Below are positions 6,012 to 53,267 of a stretch of DNA of 64,000 bases, piece by piece. Source of the DNA: an uncultured delta proteobacterium (GTDB lineage: Bacteria > Desulfobacterota > Binatia > UBA9968). The stretch's first letter is position 1. Each line of letters begins with the position of its first letter. The stretch spans positions 160,001 to 224,000 of the forward strand of contig CAVSHR010000003.1 in NCBI GenBank assembly GCA_963727625.1. Direction: 5' to 3'. The notes under the pieces were generated by a model. That model had not been told where the DNA came from. It saw only the letters and a list, made by a program, of their open reading frames with translations, and searched no databases. The translations under genes were made by a program, and so were the position numbers.

Positions 6012-7362
<1,351 letters not shown>

Positions 7363-23115: not shown

Positions 23116-23145
23116 TGCCCCTGTTCCTTTTGTTTTTGAACTTAA

Positions 23146-30490: not shown

Positions 30491-31315
30491 TTAGAATACT
30501 TCCGCTGGTACACCGGTGCGCCAGCGCACTTCACCGGCGATCCATTGCAGCGTGATCACACTGACTTTTTCAATTCCTTTGTCTGGGGGCTCACGATCCA
30601 GGCTATAAATCTGAACGCCGGCGGGATGAATCTCCCGGATTTTCTGAATCCACATCGAAACCGATTCAGGGTCGGTGTTGGTGACTCTTCCCTGGATAAA
30701 ACAGGACTGGAGGTAAATATTCTTGAGTGCTTTCAATCCAACGATAATTTCGCCCATGTACACCGGCGCCGTAGGATGGTTGAGCTGGCAAAACATTTCC
30801 TCGCTGCCAGCGTCGAATTTCATGATTTTTACATCGATAAGTTCCAGCGCGGCGCGAACGGATGGTTCGCCTAAGGTCGACGAGTTTGACAGAATCGAAA
30901 TGCACGCATCGGGTTGGTAACGGTCACGAAGCTCTTTCATTTTGACAATGATTTCGGTGAGTGCCGGATAGACCGTAGGTTCGCCATTGCCGCAGATGGT
31001 GATGGAATCGAGCGTTTTTTTCCCACGGGACAGATCCGCCAACACCTTCTCGACAGCCGTTCCAACCTCATCAACCGTTGGTAGATTATCCAGCCCTCCG
31101 GAAGCGGGCGTCGTGTCTTCAGTCCAGCCGTATTGGCAGTAAATACAATTGAACGAACAGAGTTTATACGCGGTTGGCAGCAAGTTGATGCCGAGAGAAA
31201 TGCCGAGGCGGCGCGATTGAACGGGGCCGTAGACGATCTCCGGTTGCGGCGAATATTTATTCAGCAGTTGCGGCGGCCGGTGGCCTGTGCGTGATCTTAC
31301 CGTGATACGGTTCAT
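30491..31315 (-). CDS. Radical SAM protein (TYW1-like/COG0731-type)
   Basis: YGPVQSRRLGISLGINL, CSFNCIYC, GNGEPT, LSNSS. Confidence 0.88.
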   Translation of the reverse strand: MNRITVRSRTGHRPPQLLNKYSPQPEIVYGPVQSRRLGISLGINLLPTAYKLCSFNCIYCQYGWTEDTTPASGGLDNLPTVDEVGTAVEKVLADLSRGKKTLDSITICGNGEPTVYPALTEIIVKMKELRDRYQPDACISILSNSSTLGEPSVRAALELIDVKIMKFDAGSEEMFCQLNHPTAPVYMGEIIVGLKALKNIYLQSCFIQGRVTNTDPESVSMWIQKIREIHPAGVQIYSLDREPPDKGIEKVSVITLQWIAGEVRWRTGVPAEVF

Positions 31316-31340
31316 GCCGATTCCGGTCGCAACCGATGGC

Positions 31341-32492
31341 TCAGCGGTTTGCCTTTCGGTAACCCAACACGTCTTGCGCGATAATGAGCTTTTGAATGTT
31401 CACCGAACCTTCGACGATTTGATAGGACTTGGCATCGCGGTAATAACGTTCAACGGGAAATTCCGTCGAATAACCGTAGGCGCCGAGCATTTTGAGCGCG
31501 GCGTCGGCGGAGAATGCCGCGGCTTCGGCACCGGCGTATTTCGCCATCGAGGCCTCCCAGTTGTAGGGTTGGCTGCGGTCAGCTAGACAGGCTGCGCGGT
31601 AAACCAGCAGACGGGCCGCTTCTTCCTGTACGATCATCTGCGCGATGAGATCTTGGTTCATTTGAAACTGGCCGATCTTTTGACCGAACTGCTCGCGCTG
31701 ATTGGCATAGCTCACTGCCGCCTCGCGGGCGGCCTTGGCGAGTCCGATGGCGCCGGCGGCGCAGCCTAGGCGCGTGTGATTCAAGTGGCGCATGCAGATT
31801 TTGAAGCCGTCGCCTTCTTGACCGATGAGATTCTCCGCGGGAATTTTAAAATTGTCGAAGGTTAACTCGCCGGTGGGCGAGGCATGCGCGCCCAACTTGT
31901 CGAGGTCGCGGCGGGTCACACCGGGCTGATTCAAGTCCGCATAGAAGGCCGACATGCCGCGATGCTTCTGCGCGCGGTCGGTGTACGCAAAGAGGATGCC
32001 GGCGTCGGCCACGGTGGCATTGGTGATCCAGATTTTGGTGCCGTCGAGGCGATAGTAGTTGCCGTCGCGCCTGGCAGTAGTCTTCATCGCCGCCACATCC
32101 GAGCCGGCGTCGGGTTCGGTGATGGCGAATAATCCCACGGATTCGCCGCTTAGAAATCCCGGTATATGTCTAGTCTTTTGCTGTTCGTTGCCGAACTCGA
32201 AAATCGTCACGGCCGGACCGGCTTGCATATTCAAATAAACCCGAATGGCGCTGTGAACGCGCGCGATTTCTTCCGAAATCAGAGCGTGGGCGAGGAAGCC
32301 GAGACCGTTGCCGCCGTACTCTTCGGGAATCAAACAGCCGTAGAATCCCAACTCGCCCATTTTGATCACTAGATCTTTGCGAAAAATATGTTCCCGGTCG
32401 TCCTTCGTTGCGCTCGGAGCGATCTCTTTCTCGGAAAAGTCACGCGCTAATTTCTGAACTTCGGCCAACTCTTCCGGCAGCTCAAAATCCAT
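31341..32492 (-). CDS. acd: Acyl-CoA dehydrogenase, non-decarboxylating glutaryl-CoA dehydrogenase type
   Basis: ITEPDAGSD; KLGAHASPTGEL, LNHTRL, FQMNQDLIAQM, LGAYGYSTE and C-terminal LGYRKANR match my recollection of the Desulfococcus glutaconyl-CoA-forming enzyme. Confidence 0.75.
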   Translation of the reverse strand: MDFELPEELAEVQKLARDFSEKEIAPSATKDDREHIFRKDLVIKMGELGFYGCLIPEEYGGNGLGFLAHALISEEIARVHSAIRVYLNMQAGPAVTIFEFGNEQQKTRHIPGFLSGESVGLFAITEPDAGSDVAAMKTTARRDGNYYRLDGTKIWITNATVADAGILFAYTDRAQKHRGMSAFYADLNQPGVTRRDLDKLGAHASPTGELTFDNFKIPAENLIGQEGDGFKICMRHLNHTRLGCAAGAIGLAKAAREAAVSYANQREQFGQKIGQFQMNQDLIAQMIVQEEAARLLVYRAACLADRSQPYNWEASMAKYAGAEAAAFSADAALKMLGAYGYSTEFPVERYYRDAKSYQIVEGSVNIQKLIIAQDVLGYRKANR

Positions 32493-33648
32493 GTCGGCGC
32501 TCCTTGTGCAAAAGGCTCTTAGCGATCACGAGCTTTTGAATTTCCGAGGAACCTTCATAGATGCGCAGGGCGCGCACGTCGCGGTAAAGTCGTTCCATAA
32601 CGTTTCCTGCCACGACACCGTTGCCGCCGTGAATCTGTAGCGCCTGGTCGACGATTCGCTGCGCCGCTTCCGTGGCGAAGAGCTTGGCGATAGATGACTT
32701 GAGCGGCAGATCCGGTCCCTCCATGTCATGTGTCCAGGCAGCCTGATAAACGAGAAGACGGGACGCCTCTAAATCGGCCGCCATCTCGGCGATCTTAAAT
32801 TGAATCCCCTGAAATTCGCCGATGGCGCGGCCGAACTGCCGTCGGTTTTGGCTGTAAGAAATCGCTTCCGCCAAGGCTCTGCGGGCGAAACCGACAGCGG
32901 CGGCGCCGACGCTGCAGCGCAGGGTGTCAAGGGTCCGATAAGCGATAGTCAGTCCATCTCCTTCGCCGCCGAGCATTTGTTGTCGCGGCACGAAACAGTT
33001 TTCAAAGGCCACGACGCCGATCGGGTGAGGGGAAAGCAACCGAGTTTTTTCCTTGACCGTGAAGCCGGGAGAATTGGCTTCTACGATAAAAGCGCTAACG
33101 CCCTTGGCCTTCGCACCGGGGTCTGATGAGGCGAAAACGATGTAGGTGTGCGCGATGCCGGCGTTGGAGATGAAGCATTTAATCCCGTCTAAACAGTAAC
33201 CGTCGCGGACTTTTGTCGCCCGTGTGCTAATGGCCGAAGCGTCGGACCCGGCTTCAGGCTCGGTGAGCGCGAAAGCCGCGATGTTTTCCGCGGTCGCTGC
33301 CGGCGGCAAGTACTTCTTCTTTTGCTCTTCCGAGCCGGAGACGACGATCGGGTAACTGCCGAGGGCTTGAACACCGAACATGACGTCTGCCAGGGCTGAA
33401 CAAGAGGCGAGTTCTTCGCGGATCACGCAAAGGTCGCGAGCCTGAACGGTTGCACGGAGGCCTCCGTATTGACCCGGAACCACATAACCCATGAAACCGT
33501 CTTGGCCGAGTTGTCGCGCGAGCCGGATGGCGTCGCGCTCAAGCGTTTCTGGATCAGACTCAAGATTCAGCGCATTGCGATGCGACCATGAACTGAGCCT
33601 TTCACGTAGTGTGCGAGCTTGATCATCGTCTAAAAAGTCCATGATCAA
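32482..33648 (-). CDS. Acyl-CoA dehydrogenase (family found in 2-aminobenzoyl-CoA abm clusters)
   Basis: DLCVIREELA...LADVMFGVQALGS, FALTEPEAGSD, SPHPIG, YRDVRALRIYEG. Confidence 0.85.
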   Translation of the reverse strand: MIMDFLDDDQARTLRERLSSWSHRNALNLESDPETLERDAIRLARQLGQDGFMGYVVPGQYGGLRATVQARDLCVIREELASCSALADVMFGVQALGSYPIVVSGSEEQKKKYLPPAATAENIAAFALTEPEAGSDASAISTRATKVRDGYCLDGIKCFISNAGIAHTYIVFASSDPGAKAKGVSAFIVEANSPGFTVKEKTRLLSPHPIGVVAFENCFVPRQQMLGGEGDGLTIAYRTLDTLRCSVGAAAVGFARRALAEAISYSQNRRQFGRAIGEFQGIQFKIAEMAADLEASRLLVYQAAWTHDMEGPDLPLKSSIAKLFATEAAQRIVDQALQIHGGNGVVAGNVMERLYRDVRALRIYEGSSEIQKLVIAKSLLHKERRHGF

Positions 33649-33660
33649 CAGCCAGCGGTG

Positions 33661-34110
33661 TCAGCTGGAAATTTCCTTTTGATAATGCAGCATTTTGCCC
33701 TGGACGAAGCCGAGCCGGCTGAAAAAATCCTGCATTTCATTCTGGCTGTTGCTCACCAGGGTGAAGATGGTCTTGATACCGTGGTCTTCAGCCGATTCGG
33801 CGAATTGACCGACTAATTCCTGAGCAATTCCCTTGCGGCGATAGGCTGGGTCAACACCGATTATTTCAATCCACGCTACGGTCCCCGGCAATCCAAATTC
33901 AAATTCACCGGCCCGCCCCAATACAAACCCGACCACGCGGTTGTCGCGTTCGGCCACCAAAGAGGCCCAGTGGGGCCGAATAGCTTCGGAGATTTCGATT
34001 CTCTTCTCCCAGTACTCGGGCCGCGCCACCCCGGTCTGGCGCTCCTCCATGCTGACGATCGCAGGGAGATCGCGCTTCTCCAGATTTCTGACATAGATCT
34101 CTTTTTTCAT
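33661..34110 (-). CDS. GNAT N-acetyltransferase, BadL-like
   Basis: LVAERDNRVVGFVLG..EFGL...WIEIIGVDPAYRRKGIA, as in GNATs of benzoyl-CoA reductase clusters. Confidence 0.8.
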   Translation of the reverse strand: MKKEIYVRNLEKRDLPAIVSMEERQTGVARPEYWEKRIEISEAIRPHWASLVAERDNRVVGFVLGRAGEFEFGLPGTVAWIEIIGVDPAYRRKGIAQELVGQFAESAEDHGIKTIFTLVSNSQNEMQDFFSRLGFVQGKMLHYQKEISS

Positions 34111-34133
34111 AGGCTTTTCCTCTCGCTTCGAGC

Positions 34134-34928
34134 TTAACTCCGGTTAAAACGCTGCGGTCGTTTCTCGACGAAGGAATTGTATCCCTCCACGAAGTCCGCG
34201 GTTTCCATGCACCTCGCCTGGGCTGCCGCTTCCATTTCCAGCGCAGTTTCTAGATTGATGTTCGCTTCATATTCGAGAAGCTCCTTGGTGACTCCCAGCG
34301 CGTACAGCGGCCCGTCCTTCAATCGATTTGCCCACTTGTAAGTTTCATCCATCAAAGCATCAGCCGGCACGACGCGATTGGCCAAACCGATACGGTGCGC
34401 CTCCTGGGCATCGATGGTATCGCCGAAGTAGACCAGCTCGGTGGCTTTGCCCAGGCCGACGATTCTCGGCAACAAGTACAGCGCGCCCATATCGGCGCCT
34501 GATAGACCCACTTTTACGAATAGAAAAGCCGCACGTGCTTTGTCGGAGAAGAGGCGCAAGTCCGAGGCGAGCATGAGCATCGCGCCAGCGCCGGCGGCGA
34601 TGCCGTTGACTGCGGCGATGATCGGCTTCTTTAAGGCGCGCATGTTTTTGATGACGTTGCAGGTCATGCGCGTGAAATTATAGAGTTCGTCGCCTTTCAT
34701 CTTGAGCAGCGGCCCGATGATGTCGTCGACCCGGCCGCCGGAACAAAAACCTTTGCCGGCTCCGGTCAGCACAACGACCTTGACCGTGTTGTCATGGGCC
34801 ATTTCCGCCGTGAGTTTTTCCAATTCGGCGTAAGTCTGGAAGGTCAGCGCATTGAGTCTTTCGGGATCGTTTAGGCGTATCGTTGCAATTCCTTCGTTGT
34901 TCTCAAAAACAAAACTCGAATAACTCAT
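34134..34928 (-). CDS. Enoyl-CoA hydratase family protein (abm-cluster type)
   Basis: NALTFQTY, FCSGG..DIIGPL, FLFVKVGLSGADMGA..LLPRIVG. Confidence 0.88.
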   Translation of the reverse strand: MSYSSFVFENNEGIATIRLNDPERLNALTFQTYAELEKLTAEMAHDNTVKVVVLTGAGKGFCSGGRVDDIIGPLLKMKGDELYNFTRMTCNVIKNMRALKKPIIAAVNGIAAGAGAMLMLASDLRLFSDKARAAFLFVKVGLSGADMGALYLLPRIVGLGKATELVYFGDTIDAQEAHRIGLANRVVPADALMDETYKWANRLKDGPLYALGVTKELLEYEANINLETALEMEAAAQARCMETADFVEGYNSFVEKRPQRFNRS

Positions 34929-34960
34929 CCGGTGCTTCTCCTTGCATCTAGCGTTTCGAT

Positions 34961-35740
34961 TCAGGCCATCACCGCGCCGCCATCGACCTGGATGCCCTGG
35001 CCGGTAATCCCTCTAGCGCGATCTGATGCGAGCATCAACGTCACGTACGCCACTTCTTGCGGTTCGATCAGGCGCCGCTGCGGGCAACTCGCCGCCAGCA
35101 GTCCGATCGCTTCATCCAGGGACTGGCCGCGTTTTTCCGCCATGCGTCGCGCGTTGTCACGGGTCAATTCAGTGTTGACGTAGCCGGGGCATACGGCATT
35201 GACGGTCACGCCCGACCTCGCGGTTTCGATCGCCAGAGAGCGGGTCAGGCCGAGAAGCGCGTGTTTCGATGTGGCATAGGCGGCAATTTGCGGGTAGGCG
35301 ACCCGCGCTACCGTCGAAGCGATATTGATAATCCGACCCCATCGCGCGCTGACCATTGGCCGCAAAAAAGCTTTGCAGCAGTTGTAGGCGGCGCTCAGAT
35401 TGACGCGCATGACTTCTTCCCAAAGACTATCCGGCATTTCGAGAAAGGCCGCCGCCGGCGCGATGCCGACGTTGTTCACGAGGATTTGCACCTCGCCGAA
35501 ACGACTTTCGATCTGGCGCTGTAAATTTTCGACCTCGGTTTTTTTTGTCACGTCGCAGGTCGTTGCCATCAGTTCGGCGCCGTGGCTGTCTACTTCCGCG
35601 GCGAGCTGGTCAAGGGTCTCCGCCGTTCTGCCGGTTACGACCAGCCGGCTTTTCTCCGCGGCAAATGCCAGAGCAATGGCCCTACCGATGCCGCGCCCGG
35701 CGCCGGTCACCAGAACGACTTTGCCGCATAGATCTTTCAT
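34961..35740 (-). CDS. SDR family 3-hydroxyacyl-CoA dehydrogenase-like protein
   Basis: TGAGRGIG, VNNVG, YATSK, NAVCPGY. Confidence 0.9.
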   Translation of the reverse strand: MKDLCGKVVLVTGAGRGIGRAIALAFAAEKSRLVVTGRTAETLDQLAAEVDSHGAELMATTCDVTKKTEVENLQRQIESRFGEVQILVNNVGIAPAAAFLEMPDSLWEEVMRVNLSAAYNCCKAFLRPMVSARWGRIINIASTVARVAYPQIAAYATSKHALLGLTRSLAIETARSGVTVNAVCPGYVNTELTRDNARRMAEKRGQSLDEAIGLLAASCPQRRLIEPQEVAYVTLMLASDRARGITGQGIQVDGGAVMA

Positions 35741-35743
35741 GGG

Positions 35744-36523
35744 TCAGTCGCCGGTAAAGTTCGGTTTGCGTTTCTCCAAAAACGCTTTAGTTCCCTCGGC
35801 CAGATCCTGGGTGTGCGCGATCGCGCCGAAAGTTCGCGCTTCGAATTCAAGGCCCGCCGCCAAGCCGACATCCAGGCTACGATTGATCAGCATCTTCGAG
35901 GCTTGCAGGGCGAGACGCGGCAAGGCGGCCAGCTTGGCGGCGAGACTGTTCGCTTCCGCCAAATACGTTCCCGTCGGCGCGACTTTCATGACCAAGCCCG
36001 CGGCCAGCGCTTCTTGGGCCGTGATCGGATCGCCGGTGAGAATCATTTCTTTGGCCTTGGCGATGCCGATCAAACGCCCCAGTCTTTGCGTGCCGCCGCC
36101 GCCGGGAAAAGCGCCGATCTTGATTTCCGGGAGCCCAAAGCGCGCGCTCTCCGAAGCGATGCGAAAATCGGCGGCCAAAGCCAATTCGCAACCGCCGCCG
36201 AGGGCAAATCCCGAAATTGCCGCAATCACCGGTTGAGGCAGCGATTCAACTTGGTCAAAAAGGATTTGAAATTCCCGTGCGTGGTGATAAGAGGACTCGG
36301 CGTTGGCGGGACCGCCCATTTCGCCGATGTCCGCACCGGCGCAAAAGATTTCGTCACTCCCGGTAATGACGACCGCTCGTATCGCCGGTTTGCGCGCCAG
36401 TTCGTGCAGTAGGCTCTCCATTTCTTGGCGCATCTGCGTATTAAACGAATTTTTCTTTTCCGGCCGGTTCAACCGGATTGTCGCGACCGCACCGTCCTCT
36501 TGAAATTGCAGGGTTTGATACAT
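35744..36523 (-). CDS. Enoyl-CoA hydratase (crotonase)
   Basis: FCAGADI, ALGGGCELA, FGLPEIKIG..PGGGGTQRL (both catalytic Glu present). Confidence 0.92.
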   Translation of the reverse strand: MYQTLQFQEDGAVATIRLNRPEKKNSFNTQMRQEMESLLHELARKPAIRAVVITGSDEIFCAGADIGEMGGPANAESSYHHAREFQILFDQVESLPQPVIAAISGFALGGGCELALAADFRIASESARFGLPEIKIGAFPGGGGTQRLGRLIGIAKAKEMILTGDPITAQEALAAGLVMKVAPTGTYLAEANSLAAKLAALPRLALQASKMLINRSLDVGLAAGLEFEARTFGAIAHTQDLAEGTKAFLEKRKPNFTGD

Positions 36524-36582
36524 TCCTTCCTCATTTGAAGAATATCGTTTAATGAATACTTATGCTTGTTGACCGAGCGCCA

Positions 36583-36830
36583 TTACGGGTATCGCCCGTA
36601 TACCGCTCTGTCCGGATAAACCTTTTGCCAATACTGAGCCGATTCCAACAACTCACGGCAGGCCTTGTTGCAGATCGCTGCTCGGCCAAACCTGCGCCAT
36701 CGCAAGCCAGAACATCCAACGCATGACCGCGCAGCTGAGGATAGGCTTGCAACCGGACGCTATGACTGAGCTTATCGAGCGGACATTTCAACGAGAGGAC
36801 GTAATCGGCGGATAAAAATCTACACATCAT
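36583..36830 (-). pseudogene. Small Cys-rich protein with a probable single-base frameshift near 36677
   Basis: GGAAAGG RBS; MMCRFL...KCPLD...DVLACDGAGLAEQ, then a shifted frame reads ICNKACRELLESAQYWQKVYPDRAVYGRYP-stop. Confidence 0.5.
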
Positions 36831-36848
36831 GGCCTTTTACCTTTCCTC

Positions 36849-37703
36849 TCACTTTAGATTGAAGAGCTCCGCCGCGTTATCGCGCAGCAGTTTACGCTTG
36901 GTGGTTTCTTTCAACCCCATCTCTTCCCACTGATCGAGACTCTCTTTCCAGGGCAGGCCGTTGGTTCCCCAAAGACAACGATCCAGACCCATGCGGCTGT
37001 TAATATAATGAATAATCTCGGGCTTGAGATATTTTGGCATCCAGGCGTCGACGCCGAAGTAAACGTTGTCCCATTTGTAGCAGACCGAAATCAGCTCCTC
37101 GACCCAGGGCCAACCGGTATGGGCGCCAATGATCTTGAGGTCGGGAAAATCGCTGGCGATACGATCCAGATAAATCGGCCGTGCATGCTCGCTAGGCATC
37201 GCTTCGAGAACATGCCCCACTTGCATCGACACCGGCACATTAAGCTCCACGCACTTGGCATAGAGCGGATACATTTTGGCGTCGTGCAACGGGATGTCGA
37301 AACCGTAGATGTGAATATAAACACCCTTGAAACCATGGACCTTGATCGCTTGCTCCAGTTCCTGCAACGACTCCTTGATTCGGAATGGATTGTAACTGGC
37401 AAGGCCGACAAAGCGGTTTGGATAACGAGTCGTGTATTGCGCGACTTCTTCCAGGGTCGTGTCCATGTACATCCACTTGTTGCGGTACGACCACATCTTG
37501 CACTGGGTGATGAAAACCTTGTCGACGCCCGCTTCGTCCATCTTGGCGATCATCGCCTCGATGCTGTCGTACTGCGGCAGGCCGCCGATGGCCTTCTCCA
37601 TACGGCAGATGAGCTCGCCCTTTTTCGCCTCGTTCCACTTGGCGATGAATTCCGGCGTCGCGACGTAATACATGATGTCGATGGCTTTGATGTCGTTTCG
37701 CAT
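36849..37703 (-). CDS. Amidohydrolase family protein (possible C-C or C-N hydrolase)
   Basis: TIM-barrel motifs VYIHIYG, YPLYAKC, QVGH, IGAHTGWPW, WGTN; atypical N-terminal metal motif (IDIMYY). Confidence 0.85.
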   Translation of the reverse strand: MRNDIKAIDIMYYVATPEFIAKWNEAKKGELICRMEKAIGGLPQYDSIEAMIAKMDEAGVDKVFITQCKMWSYRNKWMYMDTTLEEVAQYTTRYPNRFVGLASYNPFRIKESLQELEQAIKVHGFKGVYIHIYGFDIPLHDAKMYPLYAKCVELNVPVSMQVGHVLEAMPSEHARPIYLDRIASDFPDLKIIGAHTGWPWVEELISVCYKWDNVYFGVDAWMPKYLKPEIIHYINSRMGLDRCLWGTNGLPWKESLDQWEEMGLKETTKRKLLRDNAAELFNLK

Positions 37704-37718
37704 GGCTACCTCAAAATA

Positions 37719-37798
37719 AAATGGATAATTGAAAATTGAAGATGATAACTCAAAATTTGACGTTTCATTTAATTATCCATTCTCCATTATCAATTTTC
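37719..37798. repeat. AT-rich inverted repeat with heptamer periodicity
   Basis: AATGGATAATT...AATTATCCATT plus AATTGAA-AATTGAA and TCCATTC-TCCATTA-TCAATTT. Confidence 0.6.
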
Positions 37799-38563
37799 TT
37801 ACACCATCGTCAGCCCGCCGCTCACGCTCAATGTTTGTCCGGTGATAAATTCTGCCGCCGGCGACGTGAAAAAAAACACCGCCTCGGCGATTTCTTCGGG
37901 TTTCGCCGGACGCCGAAAGGGTGTGGCTTTGGTCACCGCTTCGATGATCTTTGCGGTTTGTTCCGATTGACTCCTGACGGCTTGTAACAGAGGAGTCTCT
38001 GTAAGCCCAGGGCAGACGACGTTGACGTTGATCTTATAGCGCGCGACTTCGCGCGCTATCGTTTTAGAAAACGCGATCACCGCCCCTTTGGAACCGGCAT
38101 ACACCGCTTCCCAACTTGAGCCGACGCGCCCGGCGTCGGAGGCGATGTTGACGATCTTGCCGCCGCCGCGAGAGATCATCTGGGGCAAAACGGCTTTGGC
38201 AGTGTAAAGCACAGACTTGAAATTGATCGCCAACAGTTTCTCCCAGGTCTCTTCGTTGCTTTCCACGAAGGGTTCCAAACGATCCCAACCCTGGCAGTTG
38301 ACTAAAATGTCGACCTGCCCGAAGCGCGCGAGAATCTCGCTCACCATGCGATCCACATCAATTTTCTTGGTCAGATCGACCTGGCAAGCCAGCGCGTCGA
38401 CGCCGAGAGCTTTAACTTCAGCGCTGACTTTCTCGGCATTATCCGTGGCGATATCCGCAATCGCGGTTTTCGCGCCGGCACGAGCCAATGCCAGGGCCAC
38501 CGCTCGTCCGATACCTCCACCACCGCCGGAAATCAAAGCGACTTTTCCTTGAAGCTCCTTCAT
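37799..38563 (-). CDS. badH: SDR, 2-hydroxycyclohexanecarboxyl-CoA dehydrogenase (BadH)-like
   Basis: SGGGGGIG, GWD, NIASDAGRVGSS.EAVY, NVVCPG, C-terminal LSVSGGLTM as in R. palustris BadH. True start at 38563. Confidence 0.75.
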   Translation of the reverse strand: MKELQGKVALISGGGGGIGRAVALALARAGAKTAIADIATDNAEKVSAEVKALGVDALACQVDLTKKIDVDRMVSEILARFGQVDILVNCQGWDRLEPFVESNEETWEKLLAINFKSVLYTAKAVLPQMISRGGGKIVNIASDAGRVGSSWEAVYAGSKGAVIAFSKTIAREVARYKINVNVVCPGLTETPLLQAVRSQSEQTAKIIEAVTKATPFRRPAKPEEIAEAVFFFTSPAAEFITGQTLSVSGGLTMV

Positions 38564-39390
38564 GCGACCCTCGCTTCCTCGACCGGACTCGTTTTCTCGG
38601 CGCGCAGTTTTTCGAGGCGGCGTAGCGCCAAGAGGGCGGCCCCCAAAGCGCCGACGAGTTCGGGTTCCTCGCTTACGTTGATCTTTCTTTTGAGCGTTTC
38701 CTCCAGCGCTTTGACCATGCCTTTTTGCCGAGCCACGCCGCCGACGAAGGTAACCTCGTCTTCCATACCGGAGCGCTTGAGCAACGCCAAGGCCCGCGAA
38801 GCAAGCGAGTTGTGCACGCCGCGGAGAATATTTTCGATAGTCTCTCCGTTTGAGACGTGATTGATAATCTCCGATTCGGCCAAGACTGCGCAGACGCTGC
38901 TGATGGTCTGCGGCTTCTTCGCTTGAATCGAGAGATCCCCGACTTGCTCGATTCCGACCTCGAGATACTTGCAGGCGCGTTCGATGAAGCCGCCGGCCCC
39001 CGCAGCGCACTTGTCGTTGGTGCGGAACTCGCGCACCTTGCCGGTGTCGGTGACCCGCAGCGCTCGCGTGCTTTGCGCGCCGATGTCGAGCACGCAGCGG
39101 GTCTTGGGAAAGAGAAAAACCGCGCCTCGGCCGACGCAAGTAATATCGGTAATCTGCACGTCGCGAAAGGGGACGTTATAGCGACCGAAGCCGGTGGTGG
39201 CTATGTAATTGATGTCGTTATCCTTGAGCCCCGCTTCTTGAAGCGCCAAGTCCAACACCTCCCGGGCGACCGCGGCGAAATCCGGCCGGGTTTTGACGGA
39301 TGCTCTGGCGCAAATACGCCTGTCCCCATCCATGATCACCGCCTTGGTCGACTTTGCGCCCATGTCAATGCCAGCGACAAAAGTCATCAT
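38560..39390 (-). CDS. bcrD: Class I aryl-CoA reductase ATPase (ASKHA) subunit, BcrD/BzdP-like
   Basis: GIDMGAKSTK, TTGFGR, LDIGAQ, NDKCAAGAG, SVCAVLAESE. Confidence 0.75.
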   Translation of the reverse strand: MMTFVAGIDMGAKSTKAVIMDGDRRICARASVKTRPDFAAVAREVLDLALQEAGLKDNDINYIATTGFGRYNVPFRDVQITDITCVGRGAVFLFPKTRCVLDIGAQSTRALRVTDTGKVREFRTNDKCAAGAGGFIERACKYLEVGIEQVGDLSIQAKKPQTISSVCAVLAESEIINHVSNGETIENILRGVHNSLASRALALLKRSGMEDEVTFVGGVARQKGMVKALEETLKRKINVSEEPELVGALGAALLALRRLEKLRAEKTSPVEEARVA

Positions 39391-39408
39391 GCCTCCTTAA
39401 AATAAGCG

Positions 39409-40242
39409 TCAGGCAGTCGGCTCTGCCTGGATCGCTGTTGCCTGGGGCTTTTCCCCTGTTGCCTTCGTGGCGCGCTCCAGGGCGAAGATGCTTGCGCCCA
39501 GTGCGCCGACGAAATGAGAATCCGGACTGACGTTGAGCTTCATACCGAGTTTTTCTTCGAGCGCACGCACCATGCCGATGTTGAGCGACACGCCGCCGGT
39601 GAAAGTCACTTCAGGTTCAATGCCGACACGCCGCACCAGTGAAATGGTCCGCGCGGCGATAGCGCTGTGCACGCCGCCGAGGATATCCTCGGTTTTTTTG
39701 CCTTGGGCGAGGTAGGACATGATGTCAGACTCGACGAAAACCGTGCAGACGGTGGTCAGGCGCACGGGATTTCGCGCTTGGAGCGAGATATCGCCGATAT
39801 CGCCCAAGCCCATGCCCAAAGCCTCGGCGGCGCTGGCAAGAAATCTTCCGGTGCCGGCGGCGCACTTGTCGTTCATGACGAAGTCCTTGACATCGCCGTC
39901 GATGCCGATTTTGATGCCCTTGGCATCCTGGCCGCCCATGTCGATCACCGTGCGCGTGTTGGGAAAAAGATAACTCGCGCCGCGCGCATGGCAGCTGATC
40001 TCGGTGATCTGGGCGTCGCCGAAGGTCACTTTGTAGCGGCCGTACCCGGTGCCCACTACGTAAGCGACATCTTCCCGTTTGACTCCCGATTTTTGCAGCG
40101 CTTCGACGAAGCACCTTTCGGCGGCCCGGGTGACGTAAGCGCCGGTGTCGGTCAAGGCTCGGGCGATGATCTCAAACTTGTCGTTGAGTATAATTCCTTT
40201 GGTCTGAGTCGAGCCAACATCGATCCCTGCGGCGTAAATCAT
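39409..40242 (-). CDS. bcrA: Class I aryl-CoA reductase ATPase subunit, short BcrA/BzdQ-like
   Basis: [49 protein letters not shown]. Confidence 0.75.
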
Positions 40243-41540
40243 GCTGCGCCTCCTGCCTCCGCGCTGGCACGGACCATTTTCTTGTGCTCCAATGATTCGA
40301 AAAAAGCGTCGATGCGGTTTTTGAGCTGGGCTTCGGAAAAATATCGCGGATCTTCGATATCCGATTCGATCAACAGAGTGGGAACGTTTAGTTCTTTGGT
40401 GAAATATTCACGCATGTCGCCCTGTCCCGCGGAAAAGAGGCGGCAGCTTTTGACCGAGTGAATCACCAGAGCGTCGGCATGCCACTCTTCGACATAACGG
40501 CGGATCTGCTGGTAGCGCTGCAAGAAGTTGCGGTTGGTGACGTTCCACTGGAGCATATGCTGGGCGATGGATTCCAACGGGTGGTTGGTATCATGCCGGA
40601 AGCCGAATTCCCACAGGCCGCCGACAGTGGAGTAGGTCGAGGCCACCGCCACCGCCCCCCATTTGGAAAACATATCTCGAAATGTCCGCAGGTACGGCCA
40701 AGGCGGCGGTCCTTCAATGACGAAGCGGAAACGCTCCTCAGGTAACGGCCCGGTTCCAAGCCGCACTTTTTCTTCCATCTCTTTAAGGGCAGTTTCAAAA
40801 AATCTCACTCCCTCTTCGGTTCCCCTCAGGCAATAGAGCGGCGCCATCATAGTCACCGAATCGAAATAGGCGTCGAAGGGAGAAGGAGTATTCTTGGTTA
40901 GCCCCTTGATGCGCGACCACATCTCGCCGGTTTCGCTCGAGCGGCGGACGATTTCTTTCAGCCGCGCGTAGTCGAGCTTCTTTCCTGTCAATTTCTCGCA
41001 GATCTCGATCACCTCTTCAAGCTGGCGCACGACGTAAGTAATGTCCTCTGGGCTCGGTTGTCCGGATGGATCGCGCGAAAATGGAATGTCGAGGTTGTAC
41101 AGTTGCCCGTCGCAGTACTCGGCCAGGTGCTCGAACCACTGGAGGTAGACATTGCAGCCCACGTAGTTGCAGAGGATCAGCGACGGCAGCGGAATCGTTG
41201 CGAAGGGGGTCTTGCGGTCGCCGAGAAACATGCCCACATCCGCTTTCACATAGGCGCAGTTGTCCATCGAGTAGCCGAGTTCCTCGGCCTTTTGGATAAA
41301 CGGCAGGGCGCTCTTTTTGACCGCAAGCTGCAGGGCATCGATCTCCGGATAGATTGGGATCATGTCGAACGCTTGGATCAATTCCACCGGGTTGCCGCTG
41401 ATCAGCATGTAGACGGCTTTGCCCTCGCCCTTTTCCGCGGCCCGGGTGACGCGCTCGAAGTAGCGCCCCATCATGTCTTTTTGCAGCAGATGCATCTGAC
41501 CCTGATACTGAGTTTTTTCGGCTACAGCTGTTTCCGCCAT
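40239..41540 (-). CDS. bcrB: Class I benzoyl-CoA reductase catalytic subunit B-like
   Basis: [63 protein letters not shown]. Confidence 0.82.
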
Positions 41541-41549
41541 AAGGTTCTC

Positions 41550-42707
41550 CTAATCGAAAAGCATTGACTCGACAAAGGTCTCGACCTCGGTACGCGCTTT
41601 ATCGAAGATCCACATCTTTTCCTCAAACTCGAGGCATAGGTGCGGAATACCCTCTTTTTCCAGCGCCCGTTTATAAAGTGCGTAGTCGAACAGCGCTGGC
41701 TCGCAGAATTTTGCTGCCAGGATTAATACCGCGGTGGCGCCGGTCTCCTTGAATTTGTCGATGAGATGTTTGGATTTGGGCTCGCGGGTATCGTGTTTGA
41801 CGCCGGAATAAACGCTTTGATTGATGTAAGCATCGGCGATGTTACGCAGGGGATCGCCTTCGGTCGAGATATCTCCAGGAAACCAGCGCCAACCAACGAG
41901 GAAGTCATCGTCCAGAATGTAGCAGCCGGCGGCCTCCAGGCCGTCGAGCAGCTCGATGGGCGGCTGCTCGCAGAAAGAGCCTTCGAGGACGACTTTGATC
42001 CTATCCTTGGGCTTTTCGTGGCGTTGGCGCAGTTCCGGCAGCGCTTCGTTGAGTATGGCGATGTGTTCCTGTGGCGGGAGCAGGGTGCCGACGCGGGTTA
42101 AGACGTAACACTCTACAGTGGAAAGATTCTGCGGCGTCTCTCTGCGGATGGCATAGAGTTCCCGCATCAGGCGACGCTGTTCATTATACAGCGAGATACT
42201 ATTTCTCAAGCCATCGTCGGTGATCTTTTTTCCGGACAATTGCTCATAGCTGGCGGCAAGCCTTTTGTACTCAGAGATCAAGTATTCCACGGTATGGGGG
42301 GAAGTCATGTTCTGGGGAAAGTGTATGTATTCCACCATCAGATCGGGAAAGTTTCTTTTGAAAACGCTGCCGAGATTGCGCGCCGGGTCGCAGATCGAGT
42401 GAAAAACCATGCCGTCGAGAAACTTGAGCCTCTCGGTGAGTCCCAACTCAAGGGTGCTTTTGACAATGGAACAAATGAAGGATTGAAAACGAGAATCGGC
42501 GTGGGCGATCTCCAGCCGGTTGCCGGCGCCGATGATGCCGACAGGCAGCATGCCCGCGGCATGAATGAGTTCGACGGGAGTGTAGACCGGATAGCACCCG
42601 ACCATTTTCTTATCGGGATTCGCTTTCTTCGACTCTACGGCGAGATCGAGTGGCGAAATCTCAAGGGGCTCGCGGTACCGAGAAACAAAATTCTCGACAG
42701 TTGTCAT
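41550..42707 (-). CDS. bcrC: Class I benzoyl-CoA reductase subunit C-like
   Basis: PVYTPVELIHAAG, FQSFICSIVKSTLELGL, SICD, GSFCEQPP, KFCEPALFD. Confidence 0.82.
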   Translation of the reverse strand: MTTVENFVSRYREPLEISPLDLAVESKKANPDKKMVGCYPVYTPVELIHAAGMLPVGIIGAGNRLEIAHADSRFQSFICSIVKSTLELGLTERLKFLDGMVFHSICDPARNLGSVFKRNFPDLMVEYIHFPQNMTSPHTVEYLISEYKRLAASYEQLSGKKITDDGLRNSISLYNEQRRLMRELYAIRRETPQNLSTVECYVLTRVGTLLPPQEHIAILNEALPELRQRHEKPKDRIKVVLEGSFCEQPPIELLDGLEAAGCYILDDDFLVGWRWFPGDISTEGDPLRNIADAYINQSVYSGVKHDTREPKSKHLIDKFKETGATAVLILAAKFCEPALFDYALYKRALEKEGIPHLCLEFEEKMWIFDKARTEVETFVESMLFD

Positions 42708-42744
42708 GGATCGCTCCGTTATAACCTTTTTATCGGAGAGTTTC

Positions 42745-42759
42745 GCAATATGGGTGCCA
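42745..42759 (-). promoter_or_regulatory. Sigma-54 promoter of the aryl-CoA reductase operon
   Basis: TGGCACCCATATTGC, 37 bp upstream of the bcrC start. Confidence 0.8.
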
Positions 42760-42957: not shown

Positions 42958-43524
42958 GTGGCGCGAACTCTAAGGTCTCATTCTATCAAAGCCATCGCCG
43001 GGCAAAGGGCGGAGGACGCCATGTGGGGCATCCCCGAGTCGCCTGAGTTCTCCGCCGTGCAGCATATGATGAATGAGTTTAAGACCCACGAAAACGACGA
43101 GGCGGAGTGGCTGAAGACTTACCAAAAGACTGCCGATGAAACAGACGATCCGCTCGTTCGCTTTCTGTTGAGTCTGATCATCGCCGACGAGGAGCGGCAC
43201 CATCAGATCATTGACCGCATGATAGCGAGGCTTAAAAACGACCTCGCCGAAACGCGGCCGGAAAAAATTTTCCAAGAAAAACAAGGTCCCGCCGGCAAAA
43301 ATGCCGGGCTACGAGCAGCGTTGGATCGATTTCTCGAAGTCGAGCGCAACGGCATCAAGGAATATGAGAGGTTGAGCAAGGCCAGCGGGGGGTTAGGTCA
43401 TGACTTGTTCGGACTGCTCTGCCGCACGATGGTTCATGACTCGATGAAGCACATCGGCATTCTCGATTTTTTACGGCGCAGGTTGCGTGAGCCCAAGAGC
43501 GCTAAACCTAGGCGAAAAAAGTGA
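42958..43524 (+). CDS. Ferritin-like (rubrerythrin-type) four-helix protein; alternative start at 43021
   Basis: E...DEERH and E...DSMKH di-iron-type pattern; RBS before both candidate starts. Confidence 0.75.
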   Translation: MARTLRSHSIKAIAGQRAEDAMWGIPESPEFSAVQHMMNEFKTHENDEAEWLKTYQKTADETDDPLVRFLLSLIIADEERHHQIIDRMIARLKNDLAETRPEKIFQEKQGPAGKNAGLRAALDRFLEVERNGIKEYERLSKASGGLGHDLFGLLCRTMVHDSMKHIGILDFLRRRLREPKSAKPRRKK

Positions 43525-43616: not shown

Positions 43617-44705
43617 TTAATTGAGAAACTTCATTTCGATGAAATCGACCAGAGGACCGATGCGATCCGGTTGAAAATTCGGGGCTGTGGCTGCCGGCGA
43701 TTTCGAGCCCACCGTCGCAACAACTAAATCACTCGCCCTGCATAGACGTTTATCGTCGTGCCCCGACAGCACTTCGATCTTTGGCCCAGGTTCCTCGTGA
43801 AACCCTTCCACTAAGACGATGTCGTGGCCACTAAAATGAGGCAAGATTTGCTCCAGTGAATTGCGATCACTGGCGGCGCGAAATAGCGCAACGTGAGCCG
43901 GTGCCATCAGCGCAACCGTATGGGCACCCGCTCGCCGGTGGCGCCAGGTGTCCGTGCCCACAGAGTCCACTTCGGCGGGAAAGTCGGAATGATGATGTTT
44001 GACAGTGCCAACCCGATATCCGCGCGCGGTTAACTCGGCGACGAGTTTTTCGATGAGCGTGGTCTTGCCGACTTTCTTAAAGCCGACGACATGTAAAACT
44101 CGGGCGGGGACTGCGGTTCGTGAGCGGTCGGGCGGCTGGGACGCCCCGTTGGACTGCGCGCATGGAATGCAGAGCGTTTGTCCTGCCAGGTGAATTTCCC
44201 GACGGAGATTTATTCCCTCGCCGCAAGAGTCACAATAGACCCTTGGGCTACGAAAGCCCGGCATGTTCTCTTCGGGGATTTCTACCCAGGCTGGCTGAAT
44301 CCCAAAGAGTAAATCCTCGGGCATGACGGTGTAAGCTTGCTTTTGCGCCTCCCTGGGATTTGCCGCATTGGGCGCATAGGCGGCAGCATGGTCTCGCGCA
44401 TTGTCTTTGGCGAGAACTCGAACCGCTTTCTGCGCTGCCGTGTTTATAAAGGTTGCCGCCATCTTGCCATAGTCGAGAAACTTCAGGGTTCGCTTGCCCA
44501 GCGAGCAGCCGGTCACGGCTTGCACTGCGTCGGTGGCGCAACGATCCATCTCGACGTAAACAATCAGTTTTTTGCAGCCGTGTGGTTCGTCGATACCGAC
44601 TTCACGGCAACCTACCATGGCCATGCGCACGCCGAGCACTTGCCCGGCGCAGTGATGTCCGTGAAGAGAGGACGATTCCTTCAGCAGTTCAGTCAATGGG
44701 CGCAT
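43617..44705 (-). CDS. FmdE-family domain + zinc finger + MobB fusion
   Basis: HGHHCAGQVLG, CATDAVQAVTGCSLGK, DYGKMAATF; CDSCGE...LCIPC; then GFKKVGKTTLIEKL, VKHHH, DTWRHRRAGA, VLVEGF. Confidence 0.88.
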   Translation of the reverse strand: MRPLTELLKESSSLHGHHCAGQVLGVRMAMVGCREVGIDEPHGCKKLIVYVEMDRCATDAVQAVTGCSLGKRTLKFLDYGKMAATFINTAAQKAVRVLAKDNARDHAAAYAPNAANPREAQKQAYTVMPEDLLFGIQPAWVEIPEENMPGFRSPRVYCDSCGEGINLRREIHLAGQTLCIPCAQSNGASQPPDRSRTAVPARVLHVVGFKKVGKTTLIEKLVAELTARGYRVGTVKHHHSDFPAEVDSVGTDTWRHRRAGAHTVALMAPAHVALFRAASDRNSLEQILPHFSGHDIVLVEGFHEEPGPKIEVLSGHDDKRLCRASDLVVATVGSKSPAATAPNFQPDRIGPLVDFIEMKFLN

Positions 44706-44780
44706 AGGTCTTTCAAACTATTTCAACTACCGAATTCAGTTCACGAACTCGCGCGCGCTCGGGGCAATTGCGCCATCTAT

Positions 44781-46292: not shown

Positions 46293-46318
46293 GCTGCTCC
46301 CTCCTTTAATTTGCCACT

Positions 46319-47074: not shown

Positions 47075-47088
47075 CGCGGGGTCTCCGT

Positions 47089-48364
<1,276 letters not shown>

Positions 48365-48372
<8 letters not shown>

Positions 48373-48637
48373 CGTGACCTCCCCGGGATTCACTCTTAAA
48401 ACGTTTGCGCACGCGCTCGATGAGGCTTTGCACATAGGCCTCACCTCGCGCACGGTAGATCGAATGGGCGCCGGCATAAAAAGGATCGCGGAAGAGACCC
48501 AGCAAACGTTCGCGGTCGTAGCCGAGCCAGACGAATTCCTCCACGAAACATTCGGCCATCACCTCCGTGTCTCCTTCGGGCACGGAGACTCGAACCAGCT
48601 CCATCGGGTCGTCGTCTTCAAGGGGTTTGCGTGCCAT
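48365..48637 (-). CDS. Small acidic accessory protein between the alpha and beta genes
   Basis: 90 aa, EDDDPMELV...MAECFVEEF..LG...LFRDPFYAG; overlaps the beta start. Confidence 0.75.
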
Positions 48638-48699
48638 GCTTCATCCGTCCTTAATATGGCTGGTTTTCTTACGTCCGGCCGTCTCGCGGTCCAGTGCGG

Positions 48700-52170: not shown

Positions 52171-52377
52171 CCTCGCCCCCTTAGCTAGCCAAATTTTTTC
52201 ATTGACCGATCGTGGTCTCAGCCGTCCAAAAAACCCGGGCAAACCGAACGGCGCCGGACTTTATTGAGCCTTTCGAGCCGCGAGCTTTGCCAGGGTTGTG
52301 GCTTCGAACAGCCCAGAGTTTCATCTGGGTCGTACAGGAGTCAACGGACCACTTTAGTCCTTTAAGCTGTCGAAGGA

Positions 52378-53253: not shown

Positions 53254-53267
53254 ACAGCTTCATATCC

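Follow-up and report, generated by a model that had tools for sequence, protein, structure and literature searches.

To our knowledge, anaerobic degradation of the aromatic ring is understood biochemically almost only from a few isolates of the Proteobacteria type. The described systems closest to the locus considered here are the class I benzoyl-coenzyme A (CoA) reductases of Thauera aromatica (BcrCBAD) and Rhodopseudomonas palustris (BadDEFG), the 3-methylbenzoyl-CoA reductase MbdONQP, the lower pathways that follow ring reduction in Thauera (Dch, Had and Oah) and in the R. palustris bad cluster (BadK, BadH and BadI), the thn operon of the naphthalene degrader N47 and of NaphS2, and the O2-dependent 2-aminobenzoyl-CoA (abm) clusters of Azoarcus evansii and Paracoccus denitrificans PD1222. 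We analysed a stretch of 64,000 nt, called the window below, from contig CAVSHR010000003.1 (GCA_963727625.1, positions 160,001 to 224,000); all coordinates follow window numbering. The host is an uncultured delta proteobacterium of soil or sediment (GTDB Desulfobacterota; Binatia; UBA9968) with a 6.6-Mb genome in 15 contigs that is 98% complete. The window carries a 14-gene operon for an uncharacterised, widespread lineage of class I reductase, which most likely acts on benzoyl-CoA.

The 14 open reading frames (ORFs) all lie on the minus strand and run closely spaced from 42707 down to 30491, with intergenic gaps of -11 to +95 nt except in the stretch that holds a small ORF. They comprise, besides the reductase genes, short-chain dehydrogenases (SDR), enoyl-CoA hydratase family proteins (ECH) and acyl-CoA dehydrogenases (ACAD):

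42745-42759, minus strand: sigma-54 -24/-12 promoter element TGGCACCCATATTGC, 38 nt before the start codon of the bcrC-like gene
41550-42707, minus strand: BcrC-like subunit, HGD-D family, 385 aa (TIGR02263 345 bits, cut-off 421; HadC 227; BzdN 143; PF06050 260)
40239-41540, minus strand: BcrB-like subunit, HGD-D family, 433 aa (TIGR02260 312 bits, cut-off 487; HadB 206)
39409-40242, minus strand: ATPase subunit, BcrA/BzdQ-like but compact, 277 aa (TIGR00241 278 bits, cut-off 125)
38560-39390, minus strand: BcrD-like ATPase subunit, 276 aa (TIGR00241 234 bits, cut-off 125; TIGR02261 189, cut-off 313)
37799-38563, minus strand: SDR1, BadH-like short-chain dehydrogenase (TIGR03206 297 bits, cut-off 431)
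36849-37703, minus strand: metal-dependent hydrolase of PF04909 (Amidohydro_2; Pfam 120.5 bits)
36549-36830, minus strand: gene of a small Cys-rich protein, frameshifted here, recognised from the intact ORFs of relatives
35744-36523, minus strand: ECH1, crotonase (best NCBIfam match NF006007, 255 bits, cut-off 355)
34961-35740, minus strand: SDR2, 3-hydroxyacyl-CoA-dehydrogenase-like (NF009093 246 bits)
34134-34928, minus strand: ECH2, enoyl-CoA hydratase of family NF006107/PRK08258 (358 bits, cut-off 330)
33661-34110, minus strand: GNAT acetyltransferase (PF00583 67 bits)
32482-33648, minus strand: ACAD1, acyl-CoA dehydrogenase (no NCBIfam match over cut-off; best AcrC, 303 bits)
31341-32492, minus strand: Acd-type (non-decarboxylating) glutaryl-CoA dehydrogenase (NF045552 483 bits, cut-off 470)
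30491-31315, minus strand: radical SAM protein, last gene of the operon (PF04055 28.8 bits, cut-off 29.5; CX3CX2C at C53/C57/C60)

An earlier note on this DNA had described an operon of 14 named genes, without a CoA ligase or ferredoxin gene; the ORF positions and the family scans bear this out.

The first four genes encode two HGD-D subunits and two different ATPases of the HgdC/BcrAD type (PF06050 and TIGR00241 matched twice each). They are contiguous, with overlaps or short gaps, and provide the four subunits of a class I aryl-CoA reductase in the order C-B-A-D. BcrB and BcrC were the top NCBIfam matches of the two HGD-D subunits, with HadB (206 bits) and HadC (227 bits) in second place. 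The ATPases are paralogues (44% identical), and the A-like one matches the C-terminal half of the TIGR02259 model only (205 bits, cut-off 578). Against the PDB, the B subunit scored 253 bits with MbdO (9g87), 185 with HadB and 106 with BzdO. It is the probable substrate/[4Fe-4S] subunit, and its residues C95, C129 and C366 are kept in 16-17 of 17 BCR-type sequences and in 10 of 10 dehydratase-like ones. The ATPases carry paired cysteines, Cys127/Cys166 in the A-like and Cys128/Cys167 in the D-like subunit, which we take to be the [4Fe-4S] ligand positions of HgdC.

For phylogeny, 1.84 billion representatives were searched with the B subunit, without a profile, and the 150 best matches were taken. 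Trees of the B subunit were inferred with FastTree (118 sequences) and IQ-TREE (LG+G4, 36 sequences), and clades were labelled by NCBIfam cut-offs and PDB scores in place of named reference sequences. BcrB was the top NCBIfam family for all ten best full-length matches, two of them above its cut-off (P0127, 630 bits; P0133, 815 bits), and HadB for 10 of 10 sequences sampled from the remaining matches (10 of the 12 outgroup sequences were scanned); P0138 is MbdO-like (480 bits to PDB 9g87). FastTree placed the window's B subunit inside a 28-sequence clade with benzoyl-CoA reductases (BCR) and methylbenzoyl-CoA reductases (MBR) (support 100). IQ-TREE recovered a 24-sequence BCR-type clade (100/100) apart from the sequences with HadB as best match. 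Within it, the window lineage (9 sequences), canonical BcrB (3) and Mbd-like sequences (8) each formed a group supported at 100/99, and their branching order was not resolved.

The BCR-like identity proposed in the earlier note thus holds in both the family scans and the B-subunit trees, where the B subunit groups with BCR and MBR sequences and not with dehydratases. As judged from sequence, the four genes can be assigned firmly to an ATP-dependent class I aryl-CoA reductase of the Bcr/Mbd type, whose lineage is uncharacterised. Public annotation of the B subunit is inconsistent, with "benzoyl-CoA reductase subunit B" as its name at JGI and "2-hydroxyacyl-CoA dehydratase" at NCBI, a conflict that the B-subunit tree settles in favour of the reductase. 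Identity as a 2-hydroxyacyl-CoA dehydratase (HadBC/HgdAB) was rejected on the second-best rank of HadB and HadC, the separation in the tree and the presence of two distinct ATPases in the operon, in place of the one homodimeric activator, frequently encoded at another site, that goes with dehydratases.

The system shares with Bcr and Bad the C-B-A-D order, the subunit types, a supported clade and the cluster cysteines. It differs in that its B subunit is only about 39-43% identical to sequences over the BcrB cut-off, in forming a separate lineage, in its compact A-like subunit and in the lack of a ferredoxin gene in the operon. MbdONQP (PDB 9g87, 9gai, 9gal, 9gba) provides the best solved-structure match of the B subunit and falls within the same superclade; however, the MbdO-like sequences form a clade of their own, apart from the window lineage.

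The lineage is widely distributed. A protein collection held 1653 relatives of the B subunit at E ≤ 1e-20, and the 120 listed are 72-96% identical to it and originate from metagenomes or metagenome-assembled genomes (MAGs) throughout. Among contigs representing one genome per species, 220 stretches encode a relative. The best 80 of these (66-97% identity) are all from MAGs. Those labelled as Binatia are the closest (92-97%), and the other labels are Acidobacteriota (Acidiferrales, Vicinamibacteria, Terriglobia), Methylomirabilia, Chloroflexota (Limnocylindria, Dehalococcoidia), Eremiobacterota/Vulcanimicrobiota, Dormiibacterota and others. Only one other close copy (71% identity) was found in a sample of 201 genomes from the host phylum, so the cluster is patchy within that phylum. 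A literature search, including Binatia/Binatota combined with benzoyl-CoA reductase, found no biochemical study of the lineage; a preprint concerning Binatota and benzoyl-CoA (10.1101/2025.11.25.690425) counts annotated pathway genes, and PMC9599518 does not mention benzoyl-CoA.

Contigs from RNA libraries also matched the locus and fell mostly on the reductase genes. A sediment library contributed 500 contigs of at least 90% identity over these genes, 62 of them at 99% or more, and a salt-marsh library 12 and 5, respectively. The sequencing runs' shares of sampled words were small, at most 0.18, and indicate no habitat or strain, and absence of cover elsewhere carries no meaning. These matches hint at transcription of the reductase family in anoxic habitats.

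Evidence on the substrate came from 42 loci with at least 3 kb on either side of the reductase and from whole-genome searches of the same 42 carriers. The order CBAD-SDR1-amidohydrolase was found in 18 of the 42 loci and SDR1 without the amidohydrolase in two, so that SDR1 directly follows bcrD in 20. In twelve loci bcrC is preceded by genes for an Rrf2 regulator, a GNAT, a SnoaL-like protein and an ScdA/hemerythrin protein. Five pair the gene of a zinc-dependent alcohol dehydrogenase, whose best match is Had (genome search, 223-265 bits), with that of an ECH best matching BadI, Oah or MenB, and the last five have none of these neighbour sets. BcrB was over its cut-off in none of the carrier genomes. 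Exactly one BcrB-like gene was present in 40 of them; the genomes carrying loci L057 and L058 (G207 and G208) have a second one on another contig (292-295 bits to TIGR02260).

In six of the 12 genomes of the Rrf2/GNAT type (Acidiferrales-type), Had and Oah are encoded side by side and score over their cut-offs (430-443 bits against 339 and 542-552 bits against 464), with a Dch-like gene (169-181 bits) beside Oah; two of the six have this pair on the same contig as the reductase, at a distance of 13 and 22 kb. The reductase of the six is about 73% identical to that of the window and is the single BcrB-like match in each genome. A search with AFOR_N (AOR family) matched none of the six, whose completeness was not established, so no class II reductase was seen in them. 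At a further locus (L101), HcrCAB-like genes followed by Oah/BadI-like, Dch-like and Had-like genes stand directly upstream of CBAD. The gamma, alpha and beta subunits of this locus have 4-hydroxybenzoyl-CoA reductase as best or near-best match (alpha 868 bits, next family 561). The product of such an enzyme would be benzoyl-CoA. Because six genomes combine Had and Oah with no other recognisable ring reductase, which is the strongest evidence, and because of the HcrCAB-like genes of L101, benzoyl-CoA is the likely substrate; judging from these gene contexts, the lineage most likely reduces it to a cyclic dienoyl-CoA.

The host genome itself lacks recognisable canonical enzymes for the steps after ring reduction. 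Searches of the whole genome returned nothing over the cut-offs, the best scores being 81 bits for Oah (against 464), 149 for Had (339), 138 for Dch (292.5) and 134 for BadI (468), so that neither the Thauera-type set (Dch, Had, Oah) nor the Rhodopseudomonas-type set (BadH, BadI) is recognisable by score. The earlier note had not recognised these genes in the operon and had postulated a non-canonical lower pathway; both statements stand after the genome-wide profile search. Only a single BcrC-like gene was found in the genome. A class II reductase was rejected, as the four AOR-family genes of the host are all closer to AOR (206-390 bits) than to BamB (PDB 4z3w, 115-204 bits). Should the host reduce benzoyl-CoA, its lower pathway would have to come from the operon itself.

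SDR1 and the amidohydrolase are the candidates for the missing steps. Among the 231 NCBIfam matches of SDR1, BadH (TIGR03206) was the best, the next scoring 230 bits. The amidohydrolase is 74-96% identical across Binatia-type and Acidobacteriota loci, which makes it as conserved as the reductase, and wherever present it follows SDR1. An orthologue (at least 74% identity) occurs in 19 of the 42 carrier genomes and Had or a Had-like enzyme in 15; no genome has both. Oah gave no match at E ≤ 1e-40 in 17 of the 18 genomes with SDR1 and the amidohydrolase. The mutual exclusion of amidohydrolase and Had points to non-orthologous replacement. To judge from this pattern, Had and Oah have probably given way, in the Binatia-type branch, to SDR1 and the PF04909 amidohydrolase.

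The nearest relatives of the amidohydrolase reveal little of its reaction. Its best PDB match is the uncharacterised BB4693 (3irs, 88 bits), followed by weak matches to decarboxylases and a hydratase of the ACMSD/LigW/LigJ kind. In the Atlas its matches were all amidohydrolases of the same kind, from Binatota, Methylomirabilota and Acidobacteriota. Many of its paralogues in the 201 genomes of the phylum stand beside ACAD, ECH and SDR genes, with no informative named context. A precedent for ring opening by such a protein may be ThnN, an amidohydrolase of the thn operon in the naphthalene degrader N47. PMC12016498 and PMC13689101 call it "the best candidate" for opening the first ring and describe it as insoluble and untested, and place its homologue BamU in the Geobacter bam cluster. 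The window's protein has its superfamily and the type of gene context in common with ThnN and BamU. In the thn operon of N47 and NaphS2 (ThnBCDE, ThnN), too, class I-like reductase genes stand with those of crotonases, ACADs and a protein of the amidohydrolase superfamily (PMC12016498). That operon differs in having 22 genes against 14 here, among them MaoC dehydratases, CoA transferase, lyases, thiolases, ferredoxin and OYE-type genes that the window's operon lacks.

A second group of operon genes, SDR2, ECH2 and ACAD1, resembles the trio that accompanies the abm genes. ECH2 matched 234 plasmid records, all below 60% identity, of which two were examined. In both, the ECH2 homologue (about 50% identical) has an ACAD, a CoA ligase and a regulator of the MarR type as neighbours. 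The cluster on plasmid 1 of P. denitrificans PD1222 also encodes an SDR, a thioesterase, RidA and a "bifunctional salicylyl-CoA 5-hydroxylase/oxidoreductase", and in the Roseivivax plasmid the ECH2 homologue stands alongside kynA. The ECH, ACAD and SDR of P. denitrificans are 50, 41 and 36% identical to ECH2, ACAD1 and SDR2, which are their best matches in the whole host genome. The earlier note's assignment of an SDR-ECH-ACAD trio to the abm type is therefore confirmed in the two plasmid records examined. An NF006107-family ECH is thus present together with homologous ACAD and SDR; AbmA was not found by tblastn at E ≤ 1e-20. The abm clusters of A. evansii and P. denitrificans share the trio, whereas no homologue of their monooxygenase/reductase was found in the host genome, the host's operon lacks the thioesterase and CoA ligase, RidA gave no match at the E-value used, and the host's reductase is of an oxygen-sensitive type.

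The same trio (41-50% identity) was found upstream of the reductase in six Acidiferrales-type loci (L084, L085, L089, L090, L093 and L095), and in two of these (L085 and L089, genomes G222 and G224) it coexists with canonical had-oah genes. Because it also occurs in had-oah genomes, the trio says little about a ring substituent. The simplest reading is that, in the aerobic abm route as in the anaerobic route, it oxidises the dicarboxyl-CoA formed by ring opening.

The GNAT recalls BadL, which acetylates aminobenzoates, as the earlier note had stated and as PMC6191541 confirms. The same paper describes the role of BadL in R. palustris as regulatory in benzoate degradation and not catabolic: the acetyltransferase makes the effector of BadM, an Rrf2 repressor of the benzoyl-CoA reductase operon, and such pairing is proposed to be common in benzoate degraders. 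By analogy, the operon's GNAT is possibly BadL-like. The R. palustris bad cluster (BadH, BadK, BadI, BadL, BadM) shares with the lineage a BadH-like SDR and a GNAT, with Rrf2/GNAT pairs in 12 of the 42 loci; it differs in that the host has neither BadI over the cut-off nor a homologue of the L099-type Rrf2 (tblastn), and in that control is by AadR/BadM there and from a sigma-54 promoter here.

On the balance of probability, the operon encodes a complete O2-independent route from benzoyl-CoA, or a very close analogue, to the level of glutaconyl-/crotonyl-CoA. The reductase would make cyclohexa-1,5-diene-1-carbonyl-CoA, which the crotonase ECH1 would hydrate, and SDR1 would oxidise the 6-hydroxy group in the role of the zinc-dependent Had. 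The amidohydrolase would then hydrate the product and open the ring hydrolytically in the role of Oah, yielding 3-hydroxypimeloyl-CoA. SDR2, ECH2, ACAD1 and Acd, together with a thiolase encoded elsewhere, would run beta-oxidation through glutaryl-CoA. The GNAT would be a BadL-like regulatory enzyme, and electrons would come from ferredoxin reduced by a 2-oxoacid oxidoreductase. The proposed chemistry of hydration, oxidation and hydrolytic ring opening is like that of the Thauera-type Dch-Had-Oah pathway, whose Had and Oah, or like enzymes, are encoded by relatives of the lineage; in the window, the SDR and the PF04909 amidohydrolase occupy the place expected for Had and Oah. ECH1 is the proposed dienoyl-CoA (or monoenoyl-CoA) hydratase, and in a related locus (L083, genome G217) the gene after the amidohydrolase was the most Dch-like match of that search (189 bits). 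More broadly, we suggest with less than even confidence that the PF04909 amidohydrolase and the BadH-like SDR form a new alicyclic ring-opening system, which has displaced the crotonase-family Oah/BadI and the zinc-dependent Had in widespread benzoyl-CoA degraders of soil.

Several points weigh against this pathway. All four subunits of the reductase score below the NCBIfam equivalog cut-offs (345/421, 312/487, 205/578 and 189/313 bits). The evidence on the substrate comes from relatives of 67-73% identity, and the specificity of the Binatia-type branch could differ. RNA-library contigs can stem from DNA, and most stem from relatives. ECH1 is only weakly Dch-like (88 bits to TIGR03189), ACAD1 and ECH2 cannot be assigned firmly to a step of a Thauera-type scheme, and genes for CoA ligase, ferredoxin and thiolase are all absent from the operon. 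Characterised PF04909 enzymes are decarboxylases, hydratases and lactonases, with no proven C-C hydrolase among them. The exclusion pattern rests on few related genome groups; since the carrier genomes are kin, few independent events lie behind it. Eight of the 42 genomes have neither the amidohydrolase nor a Had module, and one 1.6-Mb MAG with SDR1 and the amidohydrolase (G209) has a borderline Oah (465.7 bits) on another contig.

The alternative that fares best, although we regard it as unlikely, keeps benzoyl-CoA as substrate and follows R. palustris. ECH1 would then be the BadK and SDR1 the BadH of the pathway, and the amidohydrolase, in place of BadI, would open 2-oxocyclohexane-1-carbonyl-CoA to pimeloyl-CoA; ACAD1, ECH2 and SDR2 would carry out one full turn of beta-oxidation to 3-oxopimeloyl-CoA, and Acd would oxidise glutaryl-CoA. 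This scheme accords with BadH as the best match of SDR1 (297 bits, next 230), and by our own bookkeeping it uses each operon enzyme exactly once, ACAD1 included. The lineage also has GNAT/Rrf2 pairs resembling badL-badM (PMC6191541). A replacement is needed here too, as the genome has no BadI over the cut-off. However, SDR1 falls short of the 431 bits set as cut-off for BadH, the amidohydrolase gene of L083 is followed by one for a Dch-like ECH, and the relatives of the lineage go with Had and Oah. These two enzymes act on the 6-hydroxy and 6-oxo monoenes derived from the dienoyl-CoA, so a two-electron product of the reductase is more likely.

The earlier note had proposed that the substrate is a substituted aryl-CoA (2-aminobenzoyl-, salicyloyl- or 3-hydroxybenzoyl-CoA) and that the reductase replaces the O2-dependent abm monooxygenase/reductase. 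Reduction of a ring substituted at position 2 would give an enamine or enol and from it directly the 6-oxo-monoene, the amidohydrolase would act as deaminase or hydrolase, and the trio would complete the degradation. The homology of ECH2, ACAD1 and SDR2 to the module beside the salicylyl-CoA 5-hydroxylase/oxidoreductase genes (50/41/36%) fits such a substrate, but the same trio occurs near the same reductase lineage in had-oah genomes with no other recognisable ring reductase. Likewise, the operon's GNAT can be set beside the acetylation of aminobenzoates by BadL (PMC6191541), but that enzyme has a regulatory role in benzoate degradation. Further points in favour are that the reductase forms its own lineage below the BcrB and BcrC cut-offs, that Dch and Had over the cut-off are lacking in the host genome, and that anaerobic conversion of 2-aminobenzoyl-CoA is described as an enzyme activity only, at least in one review (PMC4539516). 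Against it, L101 ties the lineage to 4-hydroxybenzoyl-CoA-reductase-like genes. In addition, tblastn of the host genome found no homologue of abmA (P. denitrificans query, E ≤ 1e-20), of kynA or of a BadM-like Rrf2 (L099 query). The sole aryl-CoA ligase over the cut-off stands beside an aldehyde dehydrogenase and not beside tryptophan or anthranilate genes. The had-oah relatives, L101 and the absence of abmA and kynA thus speak against this proposal, which we consider quite unlikely for the window's operon.

Very improbable, finally, is a substrate other than a monocyclic aryl-CoA. The enzyme would then either resemble the thn reductase and act on a bicyclic or alicyclic CoA ester that is already partly reduced, or be dehydratase-like and ATP-dependent, and the products of the remaining genes would degrade that compound. 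The thn operon does join class I-like reductase genes with crotonases, ACADs and ThnN (PMC12016498 and PMC13689101), all subunits lie below equivalog cut-offs and HadB (206 bits) and HadC (227 bits) are second-best matches, but the B subunit is set apart from the HadB-best sequences at 100/100, the operon has two different ATPase genes in the BCR fashion and none of the MaoC dehydratase, CoA transferase, lyase and thiolase genes of the thn set, and the relatives are tied to Had, Oah and HcrCAB-like genes.

The route from benzoyl-CoA that we favour would matter beyond this genome. The reductase lineage occurs in MAGs of many abundant uncultured phyla of soil, peat, groundwater and sediment. If it is a true benzoyl-CoA reductase, ATP-dependent ring reduction would be a common trait of soils that are anoxic only at times, with a bearing on the turnover of lignin-derived aromatics. 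The window is a concrete and testable case of non-orthologous replacement of ring-opening steps. Should the reading of the amidohydrolase be correct, the BamU/ThnN-like amidohydrolases found with anaerobic aromatic gene clusters would gain their first function; the naphthalene-degradation field lists their role as open (PMC12016498), and the window offers a candidate function.

The operon's sigma-54 promoter, also claimed in the earlier note, is conserved in relatives. TGGCACCCATATTGC is the sole exact match to TGGCAC-N5-TTGC in the 64-kb window, where 0.16 matches are expected by chance and at least one was found in 15 of 100 shuffles. An element of the form TGGCA[CT]-N4-6-T[TC]GC lies 45-86 nt upstream of bcrC in all 27 Binatia-type relatives with enough upstream sequence. 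In 39 other loci the same degenerate pattern gave a single doubtful match, at -246. Transcription of the operon would depend on sigma-54. No activator gene adjoins the operon, the nearest activator domain in the window being at 6424-6924, and the host genome encodes about 28 sigma-54 activators.

Of the small Cys protein reported in the earlier note, the ORF at 36549-36830 is present, but it does not represent an intact protein of 93 aa: it is a frameshifted copy of a 76-81-aa protein. Twelve of 12 relatives have an intact ORF of that length with a ribosome-binding site, and C2, C15, C42, C53 and C57 are invariant among them. In the window's copy, the conserved C-terminal part (CNKACRELLES...) continues in another frame from about 36672, through either a mutation or an assembly error. 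The protein matched no Pfam family, and an AlphaFold model from the 12 sequences was poor (predicted local distance difference test, pLDDT, 58.5; predicted template modelling score, pTM, 0.41).

The radical SAM protein at the end of the operon has homologues of 59-70% identity at the same place in six loci. Searched against the PDB at E ≤ 1 it had no relative worth naming, and in the Atlas it matched only clusters named "radical SAM protein". At locus L126 (G036:C143:13480-17322), in another genome of the phylum, a homologue of 46% identity lies directly upstream of an amidohydrolase paralogue of 50% identity, a pairing which hints that the radical SAM protein and the amidohydrolase work together. 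The window holds two further radical SAM genes, for a TIGR04053-family radical SAM/SPASM protein (450 bits, cut-off 395) and a BchE-like B12-binding protein (180 bits, below its cut-off), at 53238-54458 (plus strand) and 59151-60596 (minus strand).

Genes that could serve the pathway were found outside the operon, two of them in its vicinity:

22087-24966, minus strand: 2-oxoacid:acceptor oxidoreductase, alpha and beta subunits (TIGR03710 539 bits, cut-off 483; TIGR02177 212 bits)
42958-43524, plus strand: ferritin/rubrerythrin-like protein, divergently transcribed (weak Pfam matches: Ferritin 22.5 bits, Rubrerythrin 17.7 bits)

The oxidoreductase lies 5.5 kb downstream of the operon and is a possible source of low-potential electrons. 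Several relatives (L057, L060, L064 and others) have ferredoxin and 2-oxoacid:ferredoxin oxidoreductase genes after the reductase genes, with the oxidoreductase 28-39% identical to the window's pair; tblastn found no homologue of the L064-type ferredoxin in the host genome. The ferritin/rubrerythrin-like gene is kept at the same place in 15 loci (39-73% identity). Together with the ScdA/hemerythrin gene of other loci, it would suit an oxygen-sensitive enzyme in bacteria that meet oxygen.

A gene of the benzoate-CoA-ligase family scored over the cut-off (579 against 375 bits) and lies on the operon's contig at a distance of about 94 kb, with genes for an aldehyde dehydrogenase and a class II aldolase on its flanks. 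The best HcrA-like gene of the host reached 849 bits (cut-off 995). About 27 large-subunit genes of the xanthine dehydrogenase family are present in the genome, with 350-849 bits to the model of the 4-hydroxybenzoyl-CoA reductase alpha subunit and none above 995. The best of them (C5:530870-533107) adjoins a CoA-ligase-like gene and is near a sigma-54 activator (C5:536013-536513).

Other observations concern neighbouring genes in the surveyed loci. A gene of the tryptophanase/tyrosine-phenol-lyase family (NF009709 676 bits, tyrosine phenol-lyase model 552, TnaA models 486-548) lies just downstream of the reductase genes in six loci of Eremiobacterota/Vulcanimicrobiota type (L107, L110, L111, L114, L118 and L119). 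After bcrD, five Acidiferrales-type loci (L085, L087, L088, L090 and L102) carry genes for two URO-D-like proteins, a homocysteine S-methyltransferase-like protein and malate synthase. We presume that these genes may form an O-demethylase-like methyl-transfer system acting on methoxylated aromatics.

A minus-strand cluster of the type II DMSO reductase family (43617-52242) stands immediately upstream of the operon. The gene of its alpha subunit (48700-52242) encodes 1180 aa, which match nitrite oxidoreductase subunit A (PDB 7b04) over their full length with 1599.5 bits. Further genes are those of the beta subunit (47089-48477), of a chaperone (46319-47509), of a gamma subunit that carries fused c-type cytochrome domains (44781-46367) and of MobB (43617-44705). 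Synteny with 5-6 of the closest relatives was seen for MobB and for the alpha and beta subunits. This nitrite-oxidoreductase-like molybdoenzyme suggests a nitrate-linked anaerobic life. Near the end of the window, a gene on the plus strand (60906-63365) encodes a long isocitrate lyase of 819 aa (TIGR01346, 407 bits), whose orthologues (76-78% identity) are located inside the reductase cluster, after the amidohydrolase, in four loci (L057, L058, L070 and L075).

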